NCBI GenBank assembly: GCA_963812135.1
Contig: CAWETU010000001.1
Coordinates: forward strand, 832,001-896,000
Source of the DNA: Vulcanimicrobiota bacterium
GTDB taxonomy: Bacteria > Vulcanimicrobiota > Vulcanimicrobiia > Eremiobacterales > Eremiobacteraceae
Direction of reading: 5' to 3'
Length of the DNA: 64,000 nt
In this document: piece after piece, positions 14,307-64,000 of the stretch
Position numbering within the stretch: position 1 is the stretch's first letter
Layout of the letters: each line of letters begins with the position of its first letter
Translations under genes and position numbers: made by a program
Notes under the pieces: model-generated
Seen by the model: the letters and a program-made list of their open reading frames with translations, nothing else
The model's database searches: none
What the model was told of the DNA's origin: nothing

Positions 14307-15719
14307 ATGGCGCTCAAAGAGCAGCAGCTCGTCGACAAAGACTATAAGTACGGGTTCAGCGATCAGACCGAGAGCTACTCGTTCAAGTCGCGCAAGGGCA
14401 TCGATCACGACATCGTCGAGCAGATCTCGCAGATGAAGAAAGAGCCGCAGTGGATGCGCGATTTCCGCCACCGCGCGCTCGACATCTTCCTCGCCAAGCC
14501 GATGCCGGCGTGGGCGCACAACGAAGTCCTCGAGGCGATTGACTTTGACGACATCTACTATTATATGCGCGCGTCCGACCAAGAGGGCAAAACGTGGGAA
14601 GACGTGCCCGAGGACATCAAGCGCACGTTCGATCGGCTCGGCATCCCTGAGGCCGAGCGCAAGTTCCTGGGCGGCGTCACCGCGCAGTACGATTCCGAAG
14701 TGGTCTACCATAGCATCCGCAAGGATCTCGAGGCCAAGGGCGTGCTGTTCTCCGACATGGACACCGGCCTGCGCGAGCACGAGGACATCGTGCGCGAGCA
14801 TTTCGCGACCATCATCCCGCCCGGCGACAACAAGTTCTCCGCGCTCAACTCGGCGGTCTGGTCGGGCGGTTCGTTCATCTGGGTCCCGCCGGGAGTCCGC
14901 GTGGATATCCCGCTGCAGGCCTACTTCCGCATCAACTCTGAGAACATGGGTCAGTTCGAGCGCACGCTGATCATCGCCGAGCCCGGTTCGTTCGTGCACT
15001 ATATCGAAGGGTGCACGGCGCCGACGTTTTCGAGCAACTCGCTGCACTCGGCCGTCGTCGAGCTGATCGCCAAGGAAGGCGCGCACATCCGCTACACGAC
15101 GATCCAGAACTGGTACAAGACGGTCTACAACCTCGTGACCAAGCGCGCGATGGCGCACAAGAACGCGCACGTCGAGTGGGTCGATGGCAACATCGGGTCC
15201 AAGCTCACGATGAAGTATCCTTCAGTCTACCTCATGGGTGAGGGCGCGCGCGGCGAAGTGCTTTCCATCGCGTACGCGAGCGAAGGCCAGCATCAAGACG
15301 CCGGTGCGAAGATGATCCATGCTGCGCCGAACACGACCTCGATCATCACGAGCAAGTCGGTGAGCAAGAACGGCGGACGTACGAGCTATCGCGGTCTCAT
15401 CAAGGTGTACGAAGGCTGCGACGGCGTCAAGTCCAACGTGCGCTGCGACGCATTGCTGATGGATCCCGAATCGCGCTCGGACACGTACCCGACGATCGAA
15501 GTCGACGCCAAGGACGTACGCGTCGAGCACGAAGCGACCGTCTCCAAGGTCGGCGAAGAACAGCTGTTCTACGTCATGAGCCGCGGCCTCACCGAAGTCG
15601 AAGCGACGACGATGATCGTCAACGGCTTCTTCGAGCCCTTCGTCAAGGAACTTCCCATGGAATACGCGGTCGAGCTCAACCGGCTCATCGCGCTCGAGAT
15701 GGAAGGCTCCGTTGGCTAA
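14307..15719 (+). CDS. sufB: Fe-S cluster assembly protein SufB
   Basis: [35 protein letters not shown] end. Confidence 0.97.
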
Positions 15720-17257: not shown

Positions 17258-18516
17258 GCGCGCTGGCGCGGCCGCTCGTCCAAAGCCTCTCCGATGCGGA
17301 CGTCGAGCGCATTCGCGCAGACTTTCCCATCCTCAACGAGCGCCCGCACGGCAAAAAGCTCGTCTTCTTGGACAGCGCGGCGTCTTCGCAAAAACCGATT
17401 CAGGTCATCGATGCGATGGACGATTATTACCGGCGCTACCACGCCAACATCCATCGCGGCGTCTACCACATCAGCGAGCTCGCGACCGAAGCGTATGAAG
17501 AAGCGCGCGCCGCGGTGGCGCGCTTCATCGGCACGCCCTGCGCGGCCGAATGCATCTACGTCCGCAACGCGACCGAAGGTCTCAACCTCGTCGCCTACTC
17601 GTGGGGCCGCACCAACATCAAGCGCGGCGACGTCATCTTGCTCACCGAGATGGAACATCACTCCAATCTCGTGCCCTGGCAAGTCCTCGCTGAGCAGACC
17701 GGCGCGCACCTGCGCTTCGTGCCGGTGACGGACGACGGCCGGCTCGACCTCGCGCAGCTCGACACGCTGCTCGACGGCGCCAAGATCTTCGCGTTCACCG
17801 CGGTGAGCAACACCCTTGGGACCATCAACCCCGTGAAGCAACTCGCCGCGCGCGCGCGGGCCGCGGGCGCGATCAGCGTCGTCGACGCCTGCCAGGCCGT
17901 GCCGCGCATGCCGGTCGACGTCGTCGATTGGGGCGCGGATTTCGCCGCGTTCTCCGCCCATAAGATGCTGGGACCCACCGGCGTCGGCATCCTGTGGGGT
18001 CGCAAGGAACTGCTCGATGCGATGCCGCCCTTCTTGACGGGCGGCGGCATGATCGGCATCGTCGGGCTGGAGCATTCGACGTACGCCGACGTGCCCGCGC
18101 GCTTTGAGGCAGGCACGCCGGCGATCGCAGAAGCTGTCGGACTCAGCGCGGCGGTGCGCTATCTCGAAGCGGTCGGAATGGACCGCATCCACCAATATGA
18201 GATGTTCTTGGCGGACTACGCGCTGCGCCAGCTCGCCGAGGTGCCCAATGTGACGCTGTACGGTCCCGGCATCGAACACCGCAGCGGCGTGATCTCGATG
18301 ACCGTGGGCGACATCCATGCGCACGACTTGGCGAGCATCCTCGACAGCGAAGGCGTCTGCGTGCGTGCCGGCCACCATTGCAACCAGCCGCTCATGGAGA
18401 AGCTCGGCGTGGCGGCGACCGCGCGCGCGTCGTTCTACCTGTACAACACGCTGGCTGAAGTCGACGCGCTGATCAGCGCGATCGAGAAAGCGAAGCGGAT
18501 CTTCAAGATCGCGTGA
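17254..18516 (+). CDS. sufS: Cysteine desulfurase SufS
   Basis: LDSAASSQKP, EHHSN, FSAHKM, RAGHHCNQP. Confidence 0.96.
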   Translation: MSALARPLVQSLSDADVERIRADFPILNERPHGKKLVFLDSAASSQKPIQVIDAMDDYYRRYHANIHRGVYHISELATEAYEEARAAVARFIGTPCAAECIYVRNATEGLNLVAYSWGRTNIKRGDVILLTEMEHHSNLVPWQVLAEQTGAHLRFVPVTDDGRLDLAQLDTLLDGAKIFAFTAVSNTLGTINPVKQLAARARAAGAISVVDACQAVPRMPVDVVDWGADFAAFSAHKMLGPTGVGILWGRKELLDAMPPFLTGGGMIGIVGLEHSTYADVPARFEAGTPAIAEAVGLSAAVRYLEAVGMDRIHQYEMFLADYALRQLAEVPNVTLYGPGIEHRSGVISMTVGDIHAHDLASILDSEGVCVRAGHHCNQPLMEKLGVAATARASFYLYNTLAEVDALISAIEKAKRIFKIA

Positions 18517-36864: not shown

Positions 36865-37335
36865 TCAGATGTAGTCGATATATGTGGAGTTCCCAATGGC
36901 GTCGCTAATGACGATGTGACCCCGGATTCCATAGCCGGTGAACTTGTGAACTAAGAACGGGAAAGATGGTCCGTTTCCGGATGATGGGTTGACGGTCAAG
37001 CGGCTGGAGCCTCCCGATATCGTAATCGGGCCGGTGTATCCGATTTCGCTCACGGTGTACAGGGTGGACCAGCCGGCATAGAGACCGCTGCTCATGATGC
37101 GACACGGGCAGACAGCTCCAGTTGGCGAGACCACCTGCAACGGATTGGTTGTTGGCGGCGGCGTTGGGGTCGGTGGCGGCGGAGTCGGAGTCGAGAGTGG
37201 GGTCGCGGTAGCAACCATGGTCGGCGGTGGCGGTGGCGGCGGCGGTTGAAACGCCGATACGCCGCCGCAAGCTGCTAGAATGCTTGCAGCTAGCAGGCCG
37301 CTCGTCAGGTACTTTAAGGACACATGGATATTCAT
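36865..37335 (-). CDS. Proline-rich lipoprotein
   Basis: Lipobox LAAC, poly-Pro/PT linker, beta-rich C-terminus. Confidence 0.75.
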   Translation of the reverse strand: MNIHVSLKYLTSGLLAASILAACGGVSAFQPPPPPPPPTMVATATPLSTPTPPPPTPTPPPTTNPLQVVSPTGAVCPCRIMSSGLYAGWSTLYTVSEIGYTGPITISGGSSRLTVNPSSGNGPSFPFLVHKFTGYGIRGHIVISDAIGNSTYIDYI

Positions 37336-56431: not shown

Positions 56432-57658
56432 CTAGTGGTTGCTCGTGTCGATCGTGATTTGCGCGGAGAGGCCCTGTCGCAAGAGATTGTTCGGATCCGA
56501 CTCATGATCGATCTTGATGCGCACGGGCACGCGCTGCACCACCTTGGTGAAATTGCCGGTGGCATTGTCGGGCGGAATCAACGCGAACGTCGATCCGGTC
56601 GCCGGCGCCACGCTCTCGACCGTACCGCGGAACTTCTCGCGCGGGTACGCGTCCACTTTGATGGACACCGGTTGGCCCACGCGCACGTTGGTCAACTGCG
56701 TCTCTTTGAGGTTGGCGGTGATCCAGATGTCCGTCGGATCGACGACCGCCATGAGCGCCTGGCCCGGATTGACGAAGTCGCCGACGTTGACCGAGCGCTT
56801 GCTGACGACGCCGTCGATCGGCGCTCGGATCGTGGCGTACGAGAGCTGCAGCTTCGCCGCATCGAGCGCGGCTTGCGCCGATTTCACTTGCGCCGCGCTG
56901 GTATACGCTTGCGCCTGTTTGATCTGCGTGGTATCGGACTCAGCCTGAGCCTGGATCAGGCCCGCGCTGTTGCCTGCGAGTTGCGCTTCAGCTCGCTGGA
57001 CGCCGGCCTGAGCCTCCTTGACGTTTTGGGCGGCAGAATCGCGCGCAGAGACAGCCGACTGATACGCGCTATACGTCGCGTCGGCTTCGGCTTGGGAGAT
57101 CGCGCCCTGCGCGACCAGCTGGCTCGCGCGCTGCTCGTCTTTGGCCGCCTTGACCAGGTTGGCTTCCGCGGCTTTGAGTTGCGCTTGCGCCGACATCAAC
57201 GCCGCTTGCGCGCTCGTGACGCCGCTTTCGCCTTGCCCGATGCCGGCATTGGCTTGCGCGATCTGCGCGGTCGACAGTTGCGCTTGTTGCGGCACGCCGA
57301 TCACTGCAGCCTTGTACGAAGCGACCGCCTGCGCCAACGTCGCGGCGGCCTGGTCGACCGCGGCTTTTAGGTCGCGGGCGTCGAGCTTGACGAGGATGTC
57401 GCCCTTGTGCACGGTCGAATTGTCGTTGACGAAGATATCGGTGACTTGGCCCTTCACCTTGGGAGCGATCGTCGTGATGTTGCCGTCGACCTGCGCGTCA
57501 TCGGTGGACACGTGGCGCGAAGCATAGATAAGATAAGGAATGCCTATGATGAGGATGAGGGCTGCCACGCCGATGATGATCGGGATGACGACTCGTCGCC
57601 GGCTGGGTTTTTGGTCTGGCGCCTCTGCAACCACGGGCCGTTCTTGTGCTGCAATCAT
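56432..57658 (-). CDS. EmrA/HlyD-family membrane fusion protein
   Basis: STDDAQV, ANLKET, PPDNATGNFTKVVQRVPV. Confidence 0.93.
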   Translation of the reverse strand: MIAAQERPVVAEAPDQKPSRRRVVIPIIIGVAALILIIGIPYLIYASRHVSTDDAQVDGNITTIAPKVKGQVTDIFVNDNSTVHKGDILVKLDARDLKAAVDQAAATLAQAVASYKAAVIGVPQQAQLSTAQIAQANAGIGQGESGVTSAQAALMSAQAQLKAAEANLVKAAKDEQRASQLVAQGAISQAEADATYSAYQSAVSARDSAAQNVKEAQAGVQRAEAQLAGNSAGLIQAQAESDTTQIKQAQAYTSAAQVKSAQAALDAAKLQLSYATIRAPIDGVVSKRSVNVGDFVNPGQALMAVVDPTDIWITANLKETQLTNVRVGQPVSIKVDAYPREKFRGTVESVAPATGSTFALIPPDNATGNFTKVVQRVPVRIKIDHESDPNNLLRQGLSAQITIDTSNH

Positions 57659-57669
57659 TGAAGCGTTTT

Positions 57670-58227
57670 CTATTCCGTGAAGGGTCCGATCGGCGTGATC
57701 GGTAGTTCGCGAATGTGCTCACGCAAGCTGTCCAGCCAGGCCACGAGTTTTGTCTTCTGCTCGAGAGAAAGACAGCTGCCGATCCGCTTGACGAGCTCTT
57801 GGTGGCGCGGCGAGAACCACGCTATGAACTTCTTACCCTTTTCGGTGAGCTCGGCGAGCATCATCCGGCGATCGTCGGGATGATCGACGCGCCGCACGAG
57901 GCCGTCCTTGACCAGTCCGTCGATGAGGCCGGTGATGTTGGCGCGCGTGACGACCAAGTATTCGCCTATATCCGAGAGCGGCATACGCTTTTCGGGTTGG
58001 GCATCAAGGGTCATCAAGATGTTAATCCGCCCAGGCGTCATCCGCATATCGCCCGCGGAGGCCTCGAGCATGTTGGTGAGTTCGCTGACGGTCCGCTTCA
58101 GGGTAACAATTAGGTTGACGGTATCGAAGTCGCCGTGCGCCTTGGCGCAGTAGCCTCGCAGGCCTGTGCGGAAGAGCGCCATATCGCTTTCCGGGACGCT
58201 GTCGGTTTGGGTTGGTTCGGTCTTCAT
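57670..58227 (-). CDS. MarR family regulator
   Basis: VTRANITGLIDGL..DDRR..LTEKG. Confidence 0.9.
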   Translation of the reverse strand: MKTEPTQTDSVPESDMALFRTGLRGYCAKAHGDFDTVNLIVTLKRTVSELTNMLEASAGDMRMTPGRINILMTLDAQPEKRMPLSDIGEYLVVTRANITGLIDGLVKDGLVRRVDHPDDRRMMLAELTEKGKKFIAWFSPRHQELVKRIGSCLSLEQKTKLVAWLDSLREHIRELPITPIGPFTE

Positions 58228-58264
58228 GCCAGCCTTTGTTTAGCTCCTAATGGTTAACAGGCTT

Positions 58265-58293
58265 ATTATATGGTCGGGAGGCAATCGTGTCAA
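58265..58293 (-). promoter_or_regulatory. Consensus sigma70 promoter of marR-emrAB
   Basis: Minus strand TTGACA-17 nt-TATAAT, exact consensus. Confidence 0.85.
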
Positions 58294-58329
58294 GATTCGG
58301 CGGTGACGGGGTAGTACTTATACCCCCTT

Positions 58330-58358
58330 CAAAACGCGGCGTTTTTGGGAACACCTTA
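58330..58358. repeat. Inter-gene site copy 1
   Basis: CAAAACGCGGCGTTTTTGGGAACACCTTA. Confidence 0.8.
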
Positions 58359-59072
58359 ATGGAGAGTGATTGTCACGGTCCTGGTCTCTCGACGATTGTA
58401 TAACGTCACCGTATAGCGATCCCCTTGATAGCCGCTCACGAAGTACTTGTAATCCGGTCCATATTGTTTTCGAGCTTGCGCGACGACCCGCTGGTTGTCC
58501 GGCGCATTCGGGTTGAGGAGCACAGCAATCGAGCCGAGAGCCACTGCAGCGATGACGCCGCCGACAACGATACCTAATCGCGGGTTTCTCCAAAATCGCT
58601 TTGCCGGCCCTAATTGGCTGGTGACGAACGCATCGACCGCAGGTGTCGTCAACCTGTTAAAGACCCAGAACGAGGTCGGGATGAGGAGCAGACCTATGAG
58701 GTAGTCGACCGGCTCCCTCTGTATTTGAAGTGCGAGAAAATCAAACGGCATTACGAAAGGCAGCATAAGACATACTATGGTCGAGCCACCGGCAGAAACA
58801 CCAGCGGTATAAGCGACGCTTCGAACGGGCCAAGCAGCGCCGCGATATAAAAAAACTCCAGCTCCGGCGGCCAGTAACTCGACCCCGAATCCTATTCCTT
58901 GGTGTGCTTGGATGGCGCGTATTAGGTTGAGGCCATCTTGAATGATCGCGCCTATACCATAGATTATCAGGACCAAGCCAACCGAGCGAAGTGTTTTCTC
59001 GGCCTCTGCGTTGCCAGCTTCCCAGGCGTCTAGCTCAGGTAGCTCCACGGACATCGAGCGGCCGTTAACCAT
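58356..59072 (-). CDS. Hypothetical multi-pass membrane protein
   Basis: About five hydrophobic segments; atypical codon usage. Confidence 0.65.
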   Translation of the reverse strand: MVNGRSMSVELPELDAWEAGNAEAEKTLRSVGLVLIIYGIGAIIQDGLNLIRAIQAHQGIGFGVELLAAGAGVFLYRGAAWPVRSVAYTAGVSAGGSTIVCLMLPFVMPFDFLALQIQREPVDYLIGLLLIPTSFWVFNRLTTPAVDAFVTSQLGPAKRFWRNPRLGIVVGGVIAAVALGSIAVLLNPNAPDNQRVVAQARKQYGPDYKYFVSGYQGDRYTVTLYNRRETRTVTITLH

Positions 59073-59112
59073 ATATCGACACCCACCCTGTGGGCGAGAC
59101 AGTCAAGCCGTC

Positions 59113-59138
59113 CAAAATGCGGCACTCTTGGGAACACC
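59113..59138. repeat. Inter-gene site copy 2
   Basis: CAAAATGCGGCACTCTTGGGAACACC. Confidence 0.8.
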
Positions 59139-59156
59139 CCGACCCACGAATCGGCC

Positions 59157-59933
59157 TTACTCGCCCTTTCGAAGATCTCGTTCGATATCGTCGACCCGCG
59201 CGTCTAGCTGCCGTTTTCGTCTTGCCTTGATGATGTCGGCGAGGCTCGGATCGAAGTCTTCGATCGGACCTGTGTGGGTGTACGTTTCGAGCTCCAGCCC
59301 CATTCGATTGCATATTGACTGCACAATGGTGGCCATATCCGGAGGATCGGTGTCAATAAACCATCGTTCCTCTTCATTAGGGAAGCCAATTTGCGGCGAA
59401 GCAAAAGGCTTGCCCAAGTATAGTTCAAGCTCGTGAAAATCGAACTCCGGACAAACGAATCGTCGCAGTTGCGGCAAGGTTTCTGGATGGCATATAAATG
59501 AGCTGCCCCTTTGTCGCGTCCTCGCTCCTAACCGTGAATTTAGGTTATGAAAACCGAACGGCAGTTGAAAGGGGAACCAAGAATCCGGATTCACGACCGC
59601 TTCGCCGCGCTCACCGGCGATATGCTGAGGTGATATGACCACTGACCCCGCGAAATGGCCATTAGCGCTAGCGAGCGCGTACGCGAGCTGTGCGGCGAAC
59701 TCGTAGCGGATTTCCTCAAAAGCATAGCCGCCCGGGAGTGGCTCGCTCGCGCCGGTCATTCCTTGCATCACCCAATTCGAGTCTCTAGTCTTAGTCGCGT
59801 TGCCCCAGTGACTGCCGCGCGACGGGTGTGGTAAGCATAAGTCGAAATACCAGAGCAGGCCTGGGGCCCGCAGCGCGAATATTTTCGCCCGTGCGTGGGG
59901 TGCGTGGTCCTCTAGATTGACATCTGAACCCAT
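59157..59933 (-). CDS. Hypothetical protein
   Basis: 258-aa ORF filling the space between two repeat sites; start uncertain. Confidence 0.55.
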   Translation of the reverse strand: MGSDVNLEDHAPHARAKIFALRAPGLLWYFDLCLPHPSRGSHWGNATKTRDSNWVMQGMTGASEPLPGGYAFEEIRYEFAAQLAYALASANGHFAGSVVISPQHIAGERGEAVVNPDSWFPFQLPFGFHNLNSRLGARTRQRGSSFICHPETLPQLRRFVCPEFDFHELELYLGKPFASPQIGFPNEEERWFIDTDPPDMATIVQSICNRMGLELETYTHTGPIEDFDPSLADIIKARRKRQLDARVDDIERDLRKGE

Positions 59934-59941
59934 CGCTTATC

Positions 59942-59970
59942 CTAGATCCGGCATTCTTGGGAACACCTTA
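59942..59970. repeat. Inter-gene site copy 3
   Basis: CTAGATCCGGCATTCTTGGGAACACCTTA. Confidence 0.8.
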
Positions 59971-59976
59971 CGCCGA

Positions 59977-60591
59977 CTAATGGTATCGTGCGGCGAGTTT
60001 CTTAGCAAGCTCGATCGCGCCTTGCTTTGGGCTGCCACCTTTCCAGTATTCTGCGTCGACTAGAATCTCGTACGGTCCTGAGATCGCTCGGACCATTTCA
60101 CTTGATATCTCGACGAAGCGCTGCCCACGATACACGTAGGCCTTCGGGAAACCCAAGGTCTTGGTGTAGAAGGCGTAATCCCCGATGGCTCTCTCGGGGA
60201 CGCATTCTCCAATATGTGCGTAGCCAGGGTGAGTGCACTGGTCAACTGGTAGATGGATTCTTCTTGGGAAATCAGCGCTGCGTAGCACTGAGACTATAAG
60301 GAGCTCGAATGGCTTCGGCGCTTCTTTGCCTGAAATCACAATCGCGCCTAGGTCGATCCCAAAAGAAATGGCGCAATAGATTGAGCCATTGCGCTCCTTC
60401 CAATCATCCCCGGCGCGTTTGAGTACTGGATTCAGTCGTGAGAGATCGGCGTCCGTCACCAGCGGGCAGTGTGTCGGCGACTCGAACGCGGTCGCTGTCA
60501 GAGATGGTGACGGCGTAGGTCTGGATCCTGCGCTGCAGCCGCTTACGAGAACGGCCAGGCAGGCGCAAGCTACGACGGCCATGAGCCTCAT
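59977..60591 (-). CDS. Hypothetical lipoprotein
   Basis: Lipobox VSGC, PTPSPS linker, several Cys. Confidence 0.7.
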   Translation of the reverse strand: MRLMAVVACACLAVLVSGCSAGSRPTPSPSLTATAFESPTHCPLVTDADLSRLNPVLKRAGDDWKERNGSIYCAISFGIDLGAIVISGKEAPKPFELLIVSVLRSADFPRRIHLPVDQCTHPGYAHIGECVPERAIGDYAFYTKTLGFPKAYVYRGQRFVEISSEMVRAISGPYEILVDAEYWKGGSPKQGAIELAKKLAARYH

Positions 60592-60716
60592 GAGTATTGG
60601 TGCATCGTTATTAGATCGGAGTGCACAGCTCGGGAGTTCCTTTCAACGATTGCGCTACCTCTTCGACGCGTTTCGTGGCGAGAAAAGGCCGGCGACCGGA
60701 GGCACCGATCGCCGGC

Positions 60717-61060
60717 GAATCATCGCGGTCAGCGCCGTTGTGGCGCTCGGCACGGCGTTGCTCGGAATCGCTGCTCAATTGTGGTCGCTGAGCGCAGTGC
60801 TGTTCGCGATGGGCGTCGCTGCCGGGCTTCTCAACGTGCACATCGTGGCATGGTTCCAGCAGCGCGTCGAGCGCGACATGCTCGGTCGCGCGATGAGCGT
60901 GATCATGTTCGCGGCGGTGGGTTTGCAGCCCATCTCACTGGCGATCGCCGGCTTCGCCGTGACCTGGAGCGTCACTGGCATGTTCGCCGGCGCTGCCGCA
61001 CTGATGCTGCTGTTCACCACACTCGCTGCGTTTCAGGAACCGGTCCGGGAGATCCAATGA
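60717..61060 (+). pseudogene. C-terminal fragment of an MFS transporter
   Basis: QQRVERDMLGRAMS plus the last four TMs only; no N-terminal part. Confidence 0.7.
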
Positions 61061-61079
61061 ACATCCCCGGGCCCTGGCC

Positions 61080-61625
61080 TCATTCGGTTTCGGGCTGTCG
61101 ACGTACGCCTGTCTCCGGCGCGACGATCTCGCTTAGCCTATAGGTTGAGAACGCTTTGGGCTTAATGCCCCTAGCGATAAGCGCGTCGATGAGGCGGCCA
61201 AGTTCCACCGTGTGCCAATGTCTCCGCTCCTCCCACCATTGTTGCGCGCCGGGATAGGCTATGAGGTCGCTCATCGTCCGCTCGACCCTGCCCCACGATG
61301 AGTGCCCGAGTACGCCGTCGCAATGGGAGAAATACATTCCTTCGAAATAGTTTACAAGACGGTTGAAGAACGCGCTGAACCTTAGTTTCGAGACCGGATC
61401 AAGATCAGCGAAAGATTGTAGGCCGCGAAGAAAAATTGAGCTGAGCTCTGCGCTATCGTGCAGACCTCTTGTCAGATCGCCCCATTGGACATTGAGAGCG
61501 TGAACCGCCGACTGGCGCCGTTCTGTGGTTTGCGCTCGAATCTGGATGGCTAGATATATGAGGGAAGGGATTCCGACAAACACCGCCGCCAATTGCCCGA
61601 GCGCTGCGAGCATTTCCCAGCTCAT
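61080..61625 (-). CDS. N-terminally anchored hypothetical protein
   Basis: SLIYLAIQIR TM motif, PGAQQWW. Confidence 0.65.
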   Translation of the reverse strand: MSWEMLAALGQLAAVFVGIPSLIYLAIQIRAQTTERRQSAVHALNVQWGDLTRGLHDSAELSSIFLRGLQSFADLDPVSKLRFSAFFNRLVNYFEGMYFSHCDGVLGHSSWGRVERTMSDLIAYPGAQQWWEERRHWHTVELGRLIDALIARGIKPKAFSTYRLSEIVAPETGVRRQPETE

Positions 61626-61628
61626 AAG

Positions 61629-62222
61629 CTACTTTGTCGATCTCGGCGACGAACGATCTTTTGAGTTTGGCAACGGAAGCCATCCCTCTGCTGTTGGGTG
61701 ATCTTTCATTAACCACTTTAGACCGCCAAAACAACACACCCGTCGCTTTCCAGATCTAAGCATGTCGCAGGCTTTTTCGATCCGACCCATACGCGTTTCC
61801 GTTTGCTTAGCTGAGCTTATCCAGAGTATCCACTCCCGGCGCGCGGTTGGAGTGATATCCGCCCACGATGCACGCGCCAGGGGGGCGGCTGCAAGGGCTT
61901 TGCGCAGATCCATCGGCACCCTGATCTCCGGTTCTTCCCCGGTCCGCGTAATCTCCACCGGAACTGTGTCTACTGCATCCGCGCCCGCGCCGTCGCGCAC
62001 GGCTTTGCTAACCCGGAGGCAGTGAGATCCTTGGCCGTTTCGTTCGAGCGCGGCTCGAAAAGGGAAGCCATTGATAGTTCCCTCTACCATCGTCAAACCT
62101 CGAGATGGAAGCTTCGCACTCGCGTTCTTGGGCAGCGGCAGTGGCGTCCACCGACTTTTTTCGGTTGCCTTAGGCCGAGACAGCTTGGCACTGAAGCGAA
62201 TCGTTGCCTTGGTTTCTTGCAC
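61629..62222 (-). CDS. DUF1905 + YdeI/OmpD-associated protein
   Basis: VEGTING..VPMDLRKAL..WISSAKQTETR..RI. Confidence 0.8.
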   Translation of the reverse strand: MQETKATIRFSAKLSRPKATEKSRWTPLPLPKNASAKLPSRGLTMVEGTINGFPFRAALERNGQGSHCLRVSKAVRDGAGADAVDTVPVEITRTGEEPEIRVPMDLRKALAAAPLARASWADITPTARREWILWISSAKQTETRMGRIEKACDMLRSGKRRVCCFGGLKWLMKDHPTAEGWLPLPNSKDRSSPRSTK

Positions 62223-62268
62223 CCTAGCCAGTTTCGTATATTGGTGATACTACCCTATGAAATGCATC

Positions 62269-63048
62269 TTACTCGCCGAGGAGGTCGGCGAGAATCCACG
62301 CGATTCCGGCGATCGCAAAGGTCTCGATAGTTTCGCTCCAATTCGCCTGACTGTGGGGGTCCGAAAAAAGAATCGGCACCCACACGAGTAGCCCAAAGAT
62401 CACGAGCATCGCAGTCAGGAGGCGACTTGCAAGAAGTGCCATACGATTCGTAAGTAACGCCACGGCCGCGAGCCCGAATGCGATCGTCGTCGCGACCGCC
62501 CAAAACATCTGACTTGGCGGAAGCCACTTCGGAACAAGACTCGCGGTAGGGTCAAGATGAATCGCCTGTTCGACGGTAAAGGAAGCGACGCAGACGCCAA
62601 AAACAATGCGGGCGATCCGACCAAGTGTTTTCGGTGACCATCCCGGAGACAAACGCCCATAAACGATCGCCGGTCCGATCACGAGCGAGAACCACTCGAA
62701 GAAGTTGCCCCAGCGATCGTAGATCTGTGGTCTGGCGACGATTCTCGGCACGTACAGCAACGCGAGGACGAGATACACCGCGCCGAGGACGGCTGCGCCT
62801 ATTTTCTCAGTCCGAGGGAACTGAATCGCAACGCCGCCGAGGATCTGGGCCGCAGCTGCGATGTAGAGGAAGATAGGGCCATCGGTCGCGTTCAAAATGT
62901 GACTCAGTTGGTCCCAATCCTTGTAGTTCGGCCAGACTAGCGTCATCACGCCAAAGGCCAGGGCCGCCACTCCGAATAGGTGACGGCCGAGACTCGAACT
63001 CGTGAATGGGTTTAGTCGATGAGGAGCTGCAACCGCGAGCGCGATCAT
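62269..63048 (-). CDS. DoxX-like multi-pass membrane protein
   Basis: About 8 TMs, LVPKWLP..FW. Confidence 0.7.
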   Translation of the reverse strand: MIALAVAAPHRLNPFTSSSLGRHLFGVAALAFGVMTLVWPNYKDWDQLSHILNATDGPIFLYIAAAAQILGGVAIQFPRTEKIGAAVLGAVYLVLALLYVPRIVARPQIYDRWGNFFEWFSLVIGPAIVYGRLSPGWSPKTLGRIARIVFGVCVASFTVEQAIHLDPTASLVPKWLPPSQMFWAVATTIAFGLAAVALLTNRMALLASRLLTAMLVIFGLLVWVPILFSDPHSQANWSETIETFAIAGIAWILADLLGE

Positions 63049-63060
63049 CGTGGCGCGCCG

Positions 63061-63849
63061 CTAGCCGGGTCGGTACCCGCCGCAATGCATCGGGACTTCC
63101 CAAGGCGGGGATTCGCGGATGATATTGTAGTCGAAACAATCTGAATTGGTCGGATCTTGATACGGAGCGATCGGCATTACACCGCTTACTGGATGTGGCG
63201 GCGGCGCAGTGTACGGCGCAAGCATTCTCTTGAACATTGCGGGAGTTACTCGGTAACTTTGCGCGATCTGCTCGACGATCGGGCGGTCCTGCGCCGCGAG
63301 GTTGGAGGGAACTTGCGCGAGGAAAACCAGGTTCTTATACAATCCGAGGTAATCGGGCTGAAGCGAACACATAATGCTCTCAAATTTCCAGGACTTGCCG
63401 CCAGCCGTCCAGCCTCCGAGGAGTTGAGAACACATCGGAAGCTTCATTTGCGTCACGCTCGCGATCGTCACTTGGGGTGCGGGTTGCCCTTGCTTCGCGG
63501 CCCCTTTCTGCAGGATCGTCGTGAATTTGTCGCTCAAACTCGCACTGAACGGAAGCGCGAAGGCGACTTCCCCACTGACGTTGCTTCCAGCGCTGGCATT
63601 CTTCGCAACCACGAGAACTCCAAGGTTAACCCCTTCGCCGTTTGGGCCCATCACCCAGACAAAACCGTTCGCTCCTTTTTTCAACGTCCAGCCGCTGGGA
63701 ATCCCCACCGACGCCGTCTTGTCGTCTGTCGTCACGGTTCGTAGTGTACTACTTGCAGCGATGGCCACAGACGACTGCAAAATCGCAATACTGCAGAGCG
63801 CCAACGCAGTGGCAAATACGCGCACAATGGGGCGGCTATGAGACTTCAC
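63061..63849 (-). CDS. Secreted hypothetical protein
   Basis: Signal peptide, IPSGW, C-terminal Cys pair. Confidence 0.65.
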   Translation of the reverse strand: MKSHSRPIVRVFATALALCSIAILQSSVAIAASSTLRTVTTDDKTASVGIPSGWTLKKGANGFVWVMGPNGEGVNLGVLVVAKNASAGSNVSGEVAFALPFSASLSDKFTTILQKGAAKQGQPAPQVTIASVTQMKLPMCSQLLGGWTAGGKSWKFESIMCSLQPDYLGLYKNLVFLAQVPSNLAAQDRPIVEQIAQSYRVTPAMFKRMLAPYTAPPPHPVSGVMPIAPYQDPTNSDCFDYNIIRESPPWEVPMHCGGYRPG

Positions 63850-64000
63850 AATAGAATTCCCTTTCGACTTACTCGCAGGAGGACAATATCTTGTTATTCA
63901 GGCCCTAGGGGATTGTAGCCTTTAGATAATCCTGCTTGCTGTTAATCGTGGCGGAGCCTTCCAACATGAACGTATCGCCCGCGTCGTGTGGCGTCTTTCC

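Follow-up and report, generated by a model that had tools for sequence, protein, structure and literature searches.

A cassette-like gene row beside a marR-emrAB promoter in an Eremiobacteraceae genome is probably the remnant of a casposon

We analysed a window of 64,000 nt (positions 832,001 to 896,000 of contig CAWETU010000001.1) from a Vulcanimicrobiota bacterium of the Eremiobacteraceae, in which three minus-strand genes, P0001, P0002 and P0003, are each followed by a copy of the same short site, the last copy standing beside the promoter of a marR-emrA-emrB block (Table 1). We propose that this site is probably the inner module of a casposon-type terminal repeat, and that the three genes are cargo from a place where such elements piled up beside one promoter. 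The genome holding the window (G000; 2.79 Mb, 64% G+C) was compared with a family set of 32 genomes, G000 included, and with a class-wide set of 385 genomes. L-numbers designate extracted loci; type A denotes the kind of end represented by copy 1 of the window, and type B a second end variant.

Firstly, we characterized the sites in the window. The 11-mer TTGGGAACACC occurs exactly on the plus strand at 58345, 59128 and 59957 and with one mismatch at 36886, where 0.55 matches are expected by chance, and four were reached in none of 100 shuffles. On the gene strand, the sites start 0, 18 and 9 nt after the stops of P0001, P0002 and P0003, which confirms the first-pass annotation in its central observation of three co-oriented copies (58330, 59113 and 59942) behind three unrelated minus-strand genes. 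The site of about 26 bp that it described is real but too short, since copy 1 is a two-part element of 48 nt, which can be aligned over its full length with copies in nine other family genomes and in metagenome contigs. At copy 2 the tip block is absent at the expected distance, and copy 3 is the most diverged, with GCCGGAT replacing GCCGCAT. Comparison of the three cores with each other shows differences at several positions; they are therefore not identical local copies. A profile of the element detected in G000 the window copies only (next best match, E 0.33), so that the site is not a genome-wide repetitive extragenic palindrome (REP) or terminator, an alternative that fails here because all three significant copies belong to one locus. 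The imperfect dyad noted earlier can be read in the sequence, but the predicted folding of individual copies is no better than that of shuffles (z −1.7 to +1.0). Three further candidates were rejected: the one other exact 11-mer of the genome (C1:240209), which lies within a long open stretch and whose likeness to the element ends at the 11-mer, is a chance match; a weak core look-alike seen by eye upstream of P0003 is unsupported by the profile; and the element is not itself a promoter, its hexamer spacings being unfit by eye and the promoter search having returned only the marR promoter.

As had been noticed, the edge of the element coincides with the edge of the conserved region. In blastn alignments with two genomes of the same genus, G005 and G006, homology sets in at base one of copy 1 and runs at 78% identity over the 4.2 kb of marR-emrAB, while the genes in front of the element are different in all three genomes. 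In G005 a 157-amino-acid lipoprotein-like gene lies between a tip-less and a complete copy, and in G006 genes of 80 and 112 amino acids stand in front. Gene content behind the site differs in every relative.

Secondly, we examined the element in relatives, using 47 distinct copies (32 with tip, 15 without) from family genomes and metagenome contigs. Read on the gene strand, it consists of a core, GGTGTTCCCAAAAGTGCCGCAT.., a linker of 13–14 nt whose letters vary at fixed length, and a conserved tip, ..(A/T)NTACTACCCC. The 24 core positions are 80–100% conserved, except for positions 13–15 (50–70%). Two conserved blocks at a fixed spacing with a free linker between them fit recognition of the element by a protein as double-stranded DNA, and not recent copying. 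By pattern and profile searches the element is present in 10 of the 32 family genomes (G000, G001, G005, G006, G007, G011, G017, G025, G028 and G029), at 1–3 copies each, and G016 holds no real copy. A metagenome scan returned 58 stretches, about 20 of them with a genuine element, and a scan of a species-genome collection with a 22-nt pattern returned 26, of which three have the extended element and the others match by chance or within coding sequence; in the sister family f2 the matches proved to be coding look-alikes. Viral contigs gave a single chance-like match, and the plasmid collection none.

Co-oriented arrays of promoterless genes with the site recur in the window (three copies), in G005 (two), in L142 (three), in L088 (three tip-less copies within 1.3 kb) and in L118, L101 and L095. 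In G005, L142, L118, L101 and L095, tip-less copies lie between single genes and a complete copy stands beside marR; in six marR-side arrays the promoter-proximal copy is complete and the tip is missing from those farther in. The likeness of tip-less copies to the element stops at variable points, between profile positions 22 and 39. A complete copy is found 121–137 nt before the marR gene in ten loci.

The flanks of these copies place the outer end of the element at the tip. Inverted pairs with their tips outward bracket islands of 0.8–15 kb, and in three type A cases the pair is flanked by perfect direct repeats, of 15, 15 and 14 nt (Table 1). When GGTGTT was taken as the outer end instead, no target duplication was seen at the pairs L038, L108, L132 and L135 (flanks by eye); and between L090 and L107, which share the same outside flank, not only the cargo but also the entire element differs, from core through linker to tip. 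The latter two observations argue that the tip is the outer end and that the window motif would be the inner part of a terminal inverted repeat (TIR) of about 48 bp. The 14–15-nt duplications around inverted pairs point to transposition, not to site-specific cassette exchange.

The tips have two preferred neighbours. Among 34 complete copies whose flanks were assessed by eye, the tip lies 14–16 nt before a promoter of the form TTGAC(A/T), 17–18 nt, TATAAT in seven, faces a second end tip to tip across 11–15 nt in 16, and has other neighbours in the remaining 11. The marR-emrAB promoter is the sole promoter-like site in 57600–61200 of the window, and the spacer between it and the tip of copy 1 has the length of the target duplication seen at other loci. 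At L098 and L101, one copy of the flanking repeat fills exactly the tip-to-−35 interval of the marR promoter (14–15 nt). The row at L098 reads resident end, repeat, complete new inverted pair, repeat, the arrangement expected from a second insertion into one target. Tip-to-tip pairs fold as hairpins of about 105 nt (−67 and −75 kcal/mol, z −7.7 and −9.8). What had been offered as a secondary idea, scars of repeated insertion at one target, therefore comes closest: the site appears to be a transposon end that reinserts 14–16 nt upstream of the marR-emrAB promoter and beside resident ends. In substance it would also be the mobile-element end that the first-pass annotation had considered under the heading of a known insertion sequence (IS), but it is in no catalogue searched.

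Table 1. Features of the array and its surroundings in the window, and flanked islands and elements of relatives
Feature	Position	Strand	Remarks
marR, first gene of marR-emrA-emrB block, outside the element	57670..58227	-	Pfam; 72–78% DNA identity to four same-genus genomes
Sigma-70-type promoter of marR-emrAB (TTGACA, 17 nt, TATAAT)	58265..58293	-	12/12 consensus match
Spacer from copy 1 tip to -35 box, 14 nt	58294..58307	-	
Copy 1, complete 48-nt type A end	58308..58355	-	Profile positions 1–48, E 6e-13; 24-nt core, 13–14-nt linker, tip ..GTACTACCCC
P0001, 238 amino acids, no known family	58356..59072	-	Several hydrophobic stretches by eye
Copy 2, tip-less inner module (core and part of linker)	59107..59138	-	Profile positions 1–32, E 5e-8
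P0002, 258 amino acids, no known family	59157..59933	-	
Copy 3, tip-less inner module	59944..59967	-	Profile positions 1–24, E 5e-3; alignment
P0003, 204 amino acids, no known family	59977..60591	-	Lipoprotein-like start, signal peptide and Cys by eye
MFS transporter C-terminal fragment, ~145 amino acids	60623..61060	+	Pfam MFS_1, E 1e-5 on open reading frame 60389–61060
Island of 0.8 kb, L098			Perfect flanking repeat CGCGCAGGCGCCTTA
Island of 3.5 kb, L101			Perfect flanking repeat TATTGTTCCCAACTA
Island of 14.8 kb, L090/L110 contig			Perfect 14-nt flanking repeat TTTCAGTCATCGGT
Predicted intact casposon of G005:C3, 16.4 kb	L158:1924-18366		Cas1 447 and polymerase 1003 amino acids; 65-nt inverted ends; flanking repeat GCGCACAACGCT, 12 nt, up to 15
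Predicted intact casposon of G023:C52, 18.7 kb	L159:988-19703		Cas1 464 and polymerase 984 amino acids; 35-nt inverted ends; flanking repeat CTTGGGTTCGCAGA, 14 nt, perfect

Thirdly, we asked which proteins accompany the ends. Clustering of open reading frames (ORFs) revealed a single protein family common to five islands bounded by or next to type A ends (G005, G011, L090, L101 and L125). The longest member is P0004 (728 amino acids), whose gene lies 0.9 kb from the marR-side array of G005. Of the remaining four, each is either a C-terminal piece or interrupted where the extracted DNA stops. P0004 is, judged from alignment, a family B DNA polymerase truncated at its N-terminus, with some 300 residues apparently gone. 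Its homologues are about 1000 amino acids long, some of them match PF00136 or PF03175, and their alignment contains what we take to be Exo I–III and motifs A, B and C. The family profile matched 50 sequences in the PDB (best E 7e-7), and the matches listed are all DNA polymerases: archaeal family B enzymes, polymerase alpha and engineered variants. The profile was required, since P0004 alone gave, against PDB and Pfam, just a match of 0.096 to DNA_pol_B. The C-terminus of the family contains a conserved helix-turn-helix (HTH) region, retained in four of the five islands. Close homologues of P0004 (E ≤ 1e-40) were found across the class in G005 and G011 only, with no link to a neighbouring Cas1; viral contigs contained no relative of the polymerase, and the plasmid collection gave no match to P0004. 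In the 16.8-kb metagenome contig of L090/L110 the polymerase gene extends into the middle 6.8 kb, and a contig of 13.5 kb encodes P0006, which is 82% identical to P0004.

The family genomes hold two full-length polymerase genes, in G005:C3 and G023:C52, and each lies 2.5 kb from a Cas1 gene (PF01867, E 2e-33 and 6e-29); these two are the only Cas1 matches among the 32 genomes, and their closest solved relative is the casposase of Methanosarcina mazei (6OPM, E 4e-18). The two units, L158 and L159, have inverted ends and flanking repeats (Table 1), and on every published criterion compared their sequences are those of casposons. Beyond the right end of L158 come the duplication and, in tandem, a second end. 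By eye, the ends of both units resemble type A, with an inner block ..C(A/G)CAT or GCGCCAG and a tip TA.TA.CCC or TTAACCCC. Moreover, the inner module of L158 recurs within the unit in the same orientation, at 15351, 16244/16263 and 17868, the terminal one being at 18302, with doublets at both ends; the inner copies lie 0.4–3 kb inside the right end, among small genes. L159 has no inner copies. Most other genes of the two units belong to no known family.

On this evidence, a lineage of self-synthesizing transposons with a Cas1-family integrase would be resident in this bacterial family. Its members would integrate by a 14–15-bp staggered cut at preferred sites, one being the 14–16 bp directly upstream of the marR-emrAB −35 box and the other the equal interval beside the tip of a resident element, the latter giving rise to an end-to-end pile-up. 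Copy 1 would then be a complete right end abutting the promoter site, with P0001–P0003 as terminal cargo reading toward it; Cas1, polymerase and left end would have been lost from G000, so that a solo end and its cargo remain. We infer from L158 and L159, the relatives through which the link to Cas1 is made, that type A elements are mobilized by a casposase. The 14-nt spacer of the window occurs once in the genome, with no sensible second copy within three mismatches, so that no second end is detectable. Since neither Cas1, polymerase nor second end was found in the window or in G000, the locus would be an immobile casposon remnant, one end plus cargo.

Several observations weigh against this proposal. 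G000 contains no Cas1 and no polymerase remnant, and no Cas1 was detected by tblastn with both casposases in any of 28 loci with type A ends. The islands that were read, including that of L090/L110 except for its middle 6.8 kb, do not include a complete type A element, and the polymerase of type A islands is only 28–30% identical to those of L158 and L159. A fourth inverted pair, in G011, has only an imperfect repeat of about 10 nt, and L098 and L101 have different spacers at the same promoter, which simple duplication of a fixed site does not predict. Finally, the window holds a single end with a spacer unique in the genome, and transposition at this very locus rests on its relatives.

The tip-less copies 2 and 3 require an explanation of their own. 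We favour the view that they are relics of earlier ends: a newcomer would have inserted beside the old end, and a later deletion would have removed the end-to-end palindrome of about 105 bp together with the left part of the newcomer, after which the core of the old end would stand next to the cargo and the complete end of the newcomer. Long palindromes are prone to deletion in bacteria. Both the relic status and this deletion route are deduced, from the differences between the cores, from the variable points at which the likeness ends and from the sole complete copy always being outermost. Relics do not explain why the core is always kept in tip-less copies, and the similar inner copies of the intact L158 may be functional. 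Copies 2 and 3 could instead be working subterminal sites bound by a casposon-encoded protein (the HTH of the casposase or the HTH C-terminus of the polymerase), with cargo between them; co-oriented inner modules would then be spread over the last 2–3 kb, as are the multiple transposase sites in Tn7 or Mu ends. This alternative, which we regard as unlikely yet deserving of attention, draws on the inner modules of a unit with both Cas1 and polymerase, on the strong conservation of the core in tip-less copies too and on the HTH region retained in the islands. The variable end points of the likeness fit truncation rather than working sites, however, the second intact unit has no inner copies, no such binding protein is left in the window, and the spacing of 0.4–1.6 kb with whole genes between the sites is unlike that of any multi-site transposon end known to us.

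A further possibility, which we hold to be improbable, is that rows of co-oriented tip-less ends, anchored at a promoter where new insertions take place, are a regular product of the casposase rather than of random decay, a natural array of repeat, unique segment and repeat. If so, the rows would be a living intermediate for the origin of CRISPR (clustered regularly interspaced short palindromic repeat) arrays, which have been proposed to derive from casposon solo-TIRs (PMC4779613, in the portion consulted), and casposons would have a route by which cargo genes are acquired and accumulate at the element's ends.

Two explanations outside transposition were weighed against the casposon remnant. 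The first is a cassette system, raised in the first-pass annotation as undescribed gene capture, in which a gene and its site would be moved, as in integrons or Xer/dif modules, by a trans-acting site-specific recombinase at the 24–30-bp core, with TTCCCAAAA and TTTYGGRGG as possible arms around an 8-bp spacer. The recurring rows in which each single gene lacks a promoter and has the site behind it, the six marR-side arrays with the complete copy nearest the promoter and the core, which is partly symmetric in the alignment, are what such a system would produce, and G000 retains one tyrosine recombinase, Xer-like (C1:1526630-1527625), 635 kb from the array. No tyrosine or serine recombinase was found among the 21 + 29 + 113 ORFs of the scanned loci, the 21 being those of the locus itself, where none had been visible earlier either; IS3-type rve transposases, in three scanned loci, are the sole transposase kind there, and G000 has no serine recombinase and no HUH Y1 enzyme. 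Sites of the attC type carry the R''/R' boxes RYYYAAC and GTTRRRY and form an imperfect hairpin, and pdif-type sites are 28-bp sequences (11-6-11) with a conserved XerD arm that alternate in orientation around modules. As had been read from the sequence before, the element has neither GTTRRRY boxes nor anything resembling a XerD arm; single sites do not fold, and those of the window are all co-oriented. Inverted pairs with 14–15-nt duplications are not made by site-specific recombination, and the exchange between L090 and L107 takes the linker and tip along with the cargo. We thus judge a cassette system very improbable. In G000 no canonical dif was found by simple patterns; the cumulative GC skew rises along nearly the entire 2.37-Mb contig, with no clear terminus.

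The second is a REP or miniature inverted-repeat transposable element (MITE)-like repeat, or a regulatory or 3'-untranslated-region motif read as a protein or RNA signal of the host, unrelated to transposition. Such a motif might be expected from the position of the copies, 34 of 46 testable ones having the stop of a co-oriented ORF within 60 nt upstream (20% at random places), from the fixed distance of complete copies to the marR promoter, and from the tip-to-tip hairpins between convergent genes, where bidirectional terminators and Correia/ERIC-type elements also form hairpins; we nevertheless give it very little credence, because the element has 1–3 copies per genome and none elsewhere in G000, the four pairs named above show no target duplication at their GGTGTT ends, the stem of single copies is not maintained by compensating changes (by eye), the preceding genes are strain-specific cargo without a coherent regulon, and an Rfam search of 57500–61500 at E ≤ 10 matched no family, giving five sub-threshold chance matches, none at the sites.

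The proposed remnant agrees in many respects with known casposons, which in the parts of the literature available to us have TIRs of 25–602 nt and target-site duplications (TSDs) whose median length is 15 nt (14 nt in M. mazei), and occur as tandem copies separated by a shared TSD and as solo-TIRs (PMC4046053, PMC4779613, PMC6977970). As far as the sections seen describe them, the family 2 casposons of M. mazei (PMC4779613, PMC6977970) share with the present elements inverted ends of tens of nt, a 14-bp duplication, one intergenic target that is reused, neighbours with nothing but a common duplication between them, solo ends as decay products at the target and, in intact copies (here L158 and L159), a Cas1 integrase with a family B polymerase. 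They differ in that the host here is a bacterium, the target adjoins a promoter −35 box, where theirs is a tRNA gene or the IR1 region, cargo and a row of tip-less modules, absent from those descriptions, persist in the remnant, and type A ends occur without Cas1 in the loci examined. With the bacterial casposons of family 3, as described in the same partial sources (PMC4046053, PMC4779613), the elements have in common a bacterial host, intergenic insertion, an archaeal PolB-like polymerase and a Cas1 longer than that of CRISPR systems (447–464 amino acids in L158 and L159); the family 3 hosts listed there (Proteobacteria, Actinobacteria and Ca. Acetothermum) differ from the present lineage. 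Reuse of one target and islands of tandem, partly inactivated copies also recall the pile-ups of Tn7-type transposons, a parallel drawn in those excerpts as well (PMC4046053, PMC4779613). Integrons are similar in their co-oriented promoterless single genes each followed by a site, in a special complete site at the end of the row and in content that varies among close relatives; here, in contrast, there is no integrase, attC hairpin or R box, sites occur inverted with duplications, and the complete site is downstream of the row, at a transposon tip. Tn7 makes a target duplication of 5 bp, not 14–15 bp, and employs TnsABC+D, not Cas1; here the target is beside a promoter.

Casposons, including bacterial ones, their tandem copies and their solo-TIRs are thus already known; what would be new is the host lineage of the remnant and its target next to a promoter, and of greater interest are the rows of inner modules. 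We found no literature linking 'casposon' with 'Eremiobacter' and, in what the sources on casposon 'subterminal' sequences offered in part, no description of rows of inner end modules with cargo. Cas1 homologues (E ≤ 1e-10) are present in 89 of the 385 class genomes, many genomes having several and some of the genes being broken by stops; this tally mixes close homologues (47–57% identity, about two dozen genomes) with others of 28–34% identity, which may be other casposases or the Cas1 of CRISPR systems. The count, taken from homology matches, suggests a lineage unusually rich in casposons. The general view is that casposons are uncommon, occur chiefly in archaea and probably gave rise to the adaptation machinery of CRISPR; the present lineage, little-studied soil bacteria, appears to be rich in them, with two intact Cas1 and PolB elements in 32 genomes and type A remnants in ten. 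The precise promoter-side target, the pile-ups of ends and the rows of inner modules offer material on how casposases choose targets and on how solo ends and repeat arrays originate. For annotation, 'cassette arrays without integrase' warrant a check for transposon ends before a new capture system is claimed.

We then examined the cargo and its surroundings. No Pfam or NCBIfam family matched P0001, P0002 or P0003, whose G+C content (0.51–0.59) compares with 0.62–0.68 in emrAB. Homologues of P0001 (30–37% identity) and of P0002 are distant and were each found in 3 of the 384 other class genomes, none of them in the genus for P0001 and none in the family for P0002. P0003 has a 70% identical DNA copy in an island of G005, which is limited to the ORF, inverted, 5 kb from the element and without the site. 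By eye, none of the three genes has its own promoter; the intervals between them are 43–84 nt, with GGAG/AGGA resembling ribosome-binding sites just before the starts. In the one sequencing run that contains it, the stretch is present as short contigs of low depth, with no joints and no alternative junctions.

On the far side of the array, the MFS_1 match covers only the last part of the profile span, and the fragment has no copy elsewhere in the genome or in the loci of relatives; the truncated gene marks a deletion or rearrangement. Its G+C is host-like (0.62–0.64), and it lies between the array and a second low-G+C block, which runs from 61080 to 64000 and on to about L005:11000 with minus-strand genes for proteins of 181 amino acids, OmdA/DUF1905, DoxX-like, and of 262, 195 and 148 amino acids. 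The 181-amino-acid gene has a homologue in another element-bearing locus, L089, and the run may be older island content.

Ends of type B (TTGTCCGTTTTCCCGCAT..CACTATACCCCC; also TTGTCCGTTTTCCCGCA..C(A/G)CTATACCCCC) stand before the marR promoter in G001 (L087, minus strand) and G004 (L081:60-100), at the same distance from the −35 box as type A, and in G028, L110, L113 and L125 they are paired with type A ends in inverted orientation. At L038:5922-6022 of G029 and L054:6001 of G028, TPR/LuxR-type regulator genes that are 95% identical between these different genera adjoin a tip-to-tip pair, both ends being type A in one genome and A plus B in the other. The cargo of islands in relatives (L029:34-6926 of G005, L090, L098, L107 and L101) includes genes of defence or conflict type: SUKH/SMI1 immunity-like, FRG domain, an AbiEii/AbiEi pair, HicB, a Mrr-type restriction endonuclease and Schlafen AlbA_2, along with IS3 insertions.

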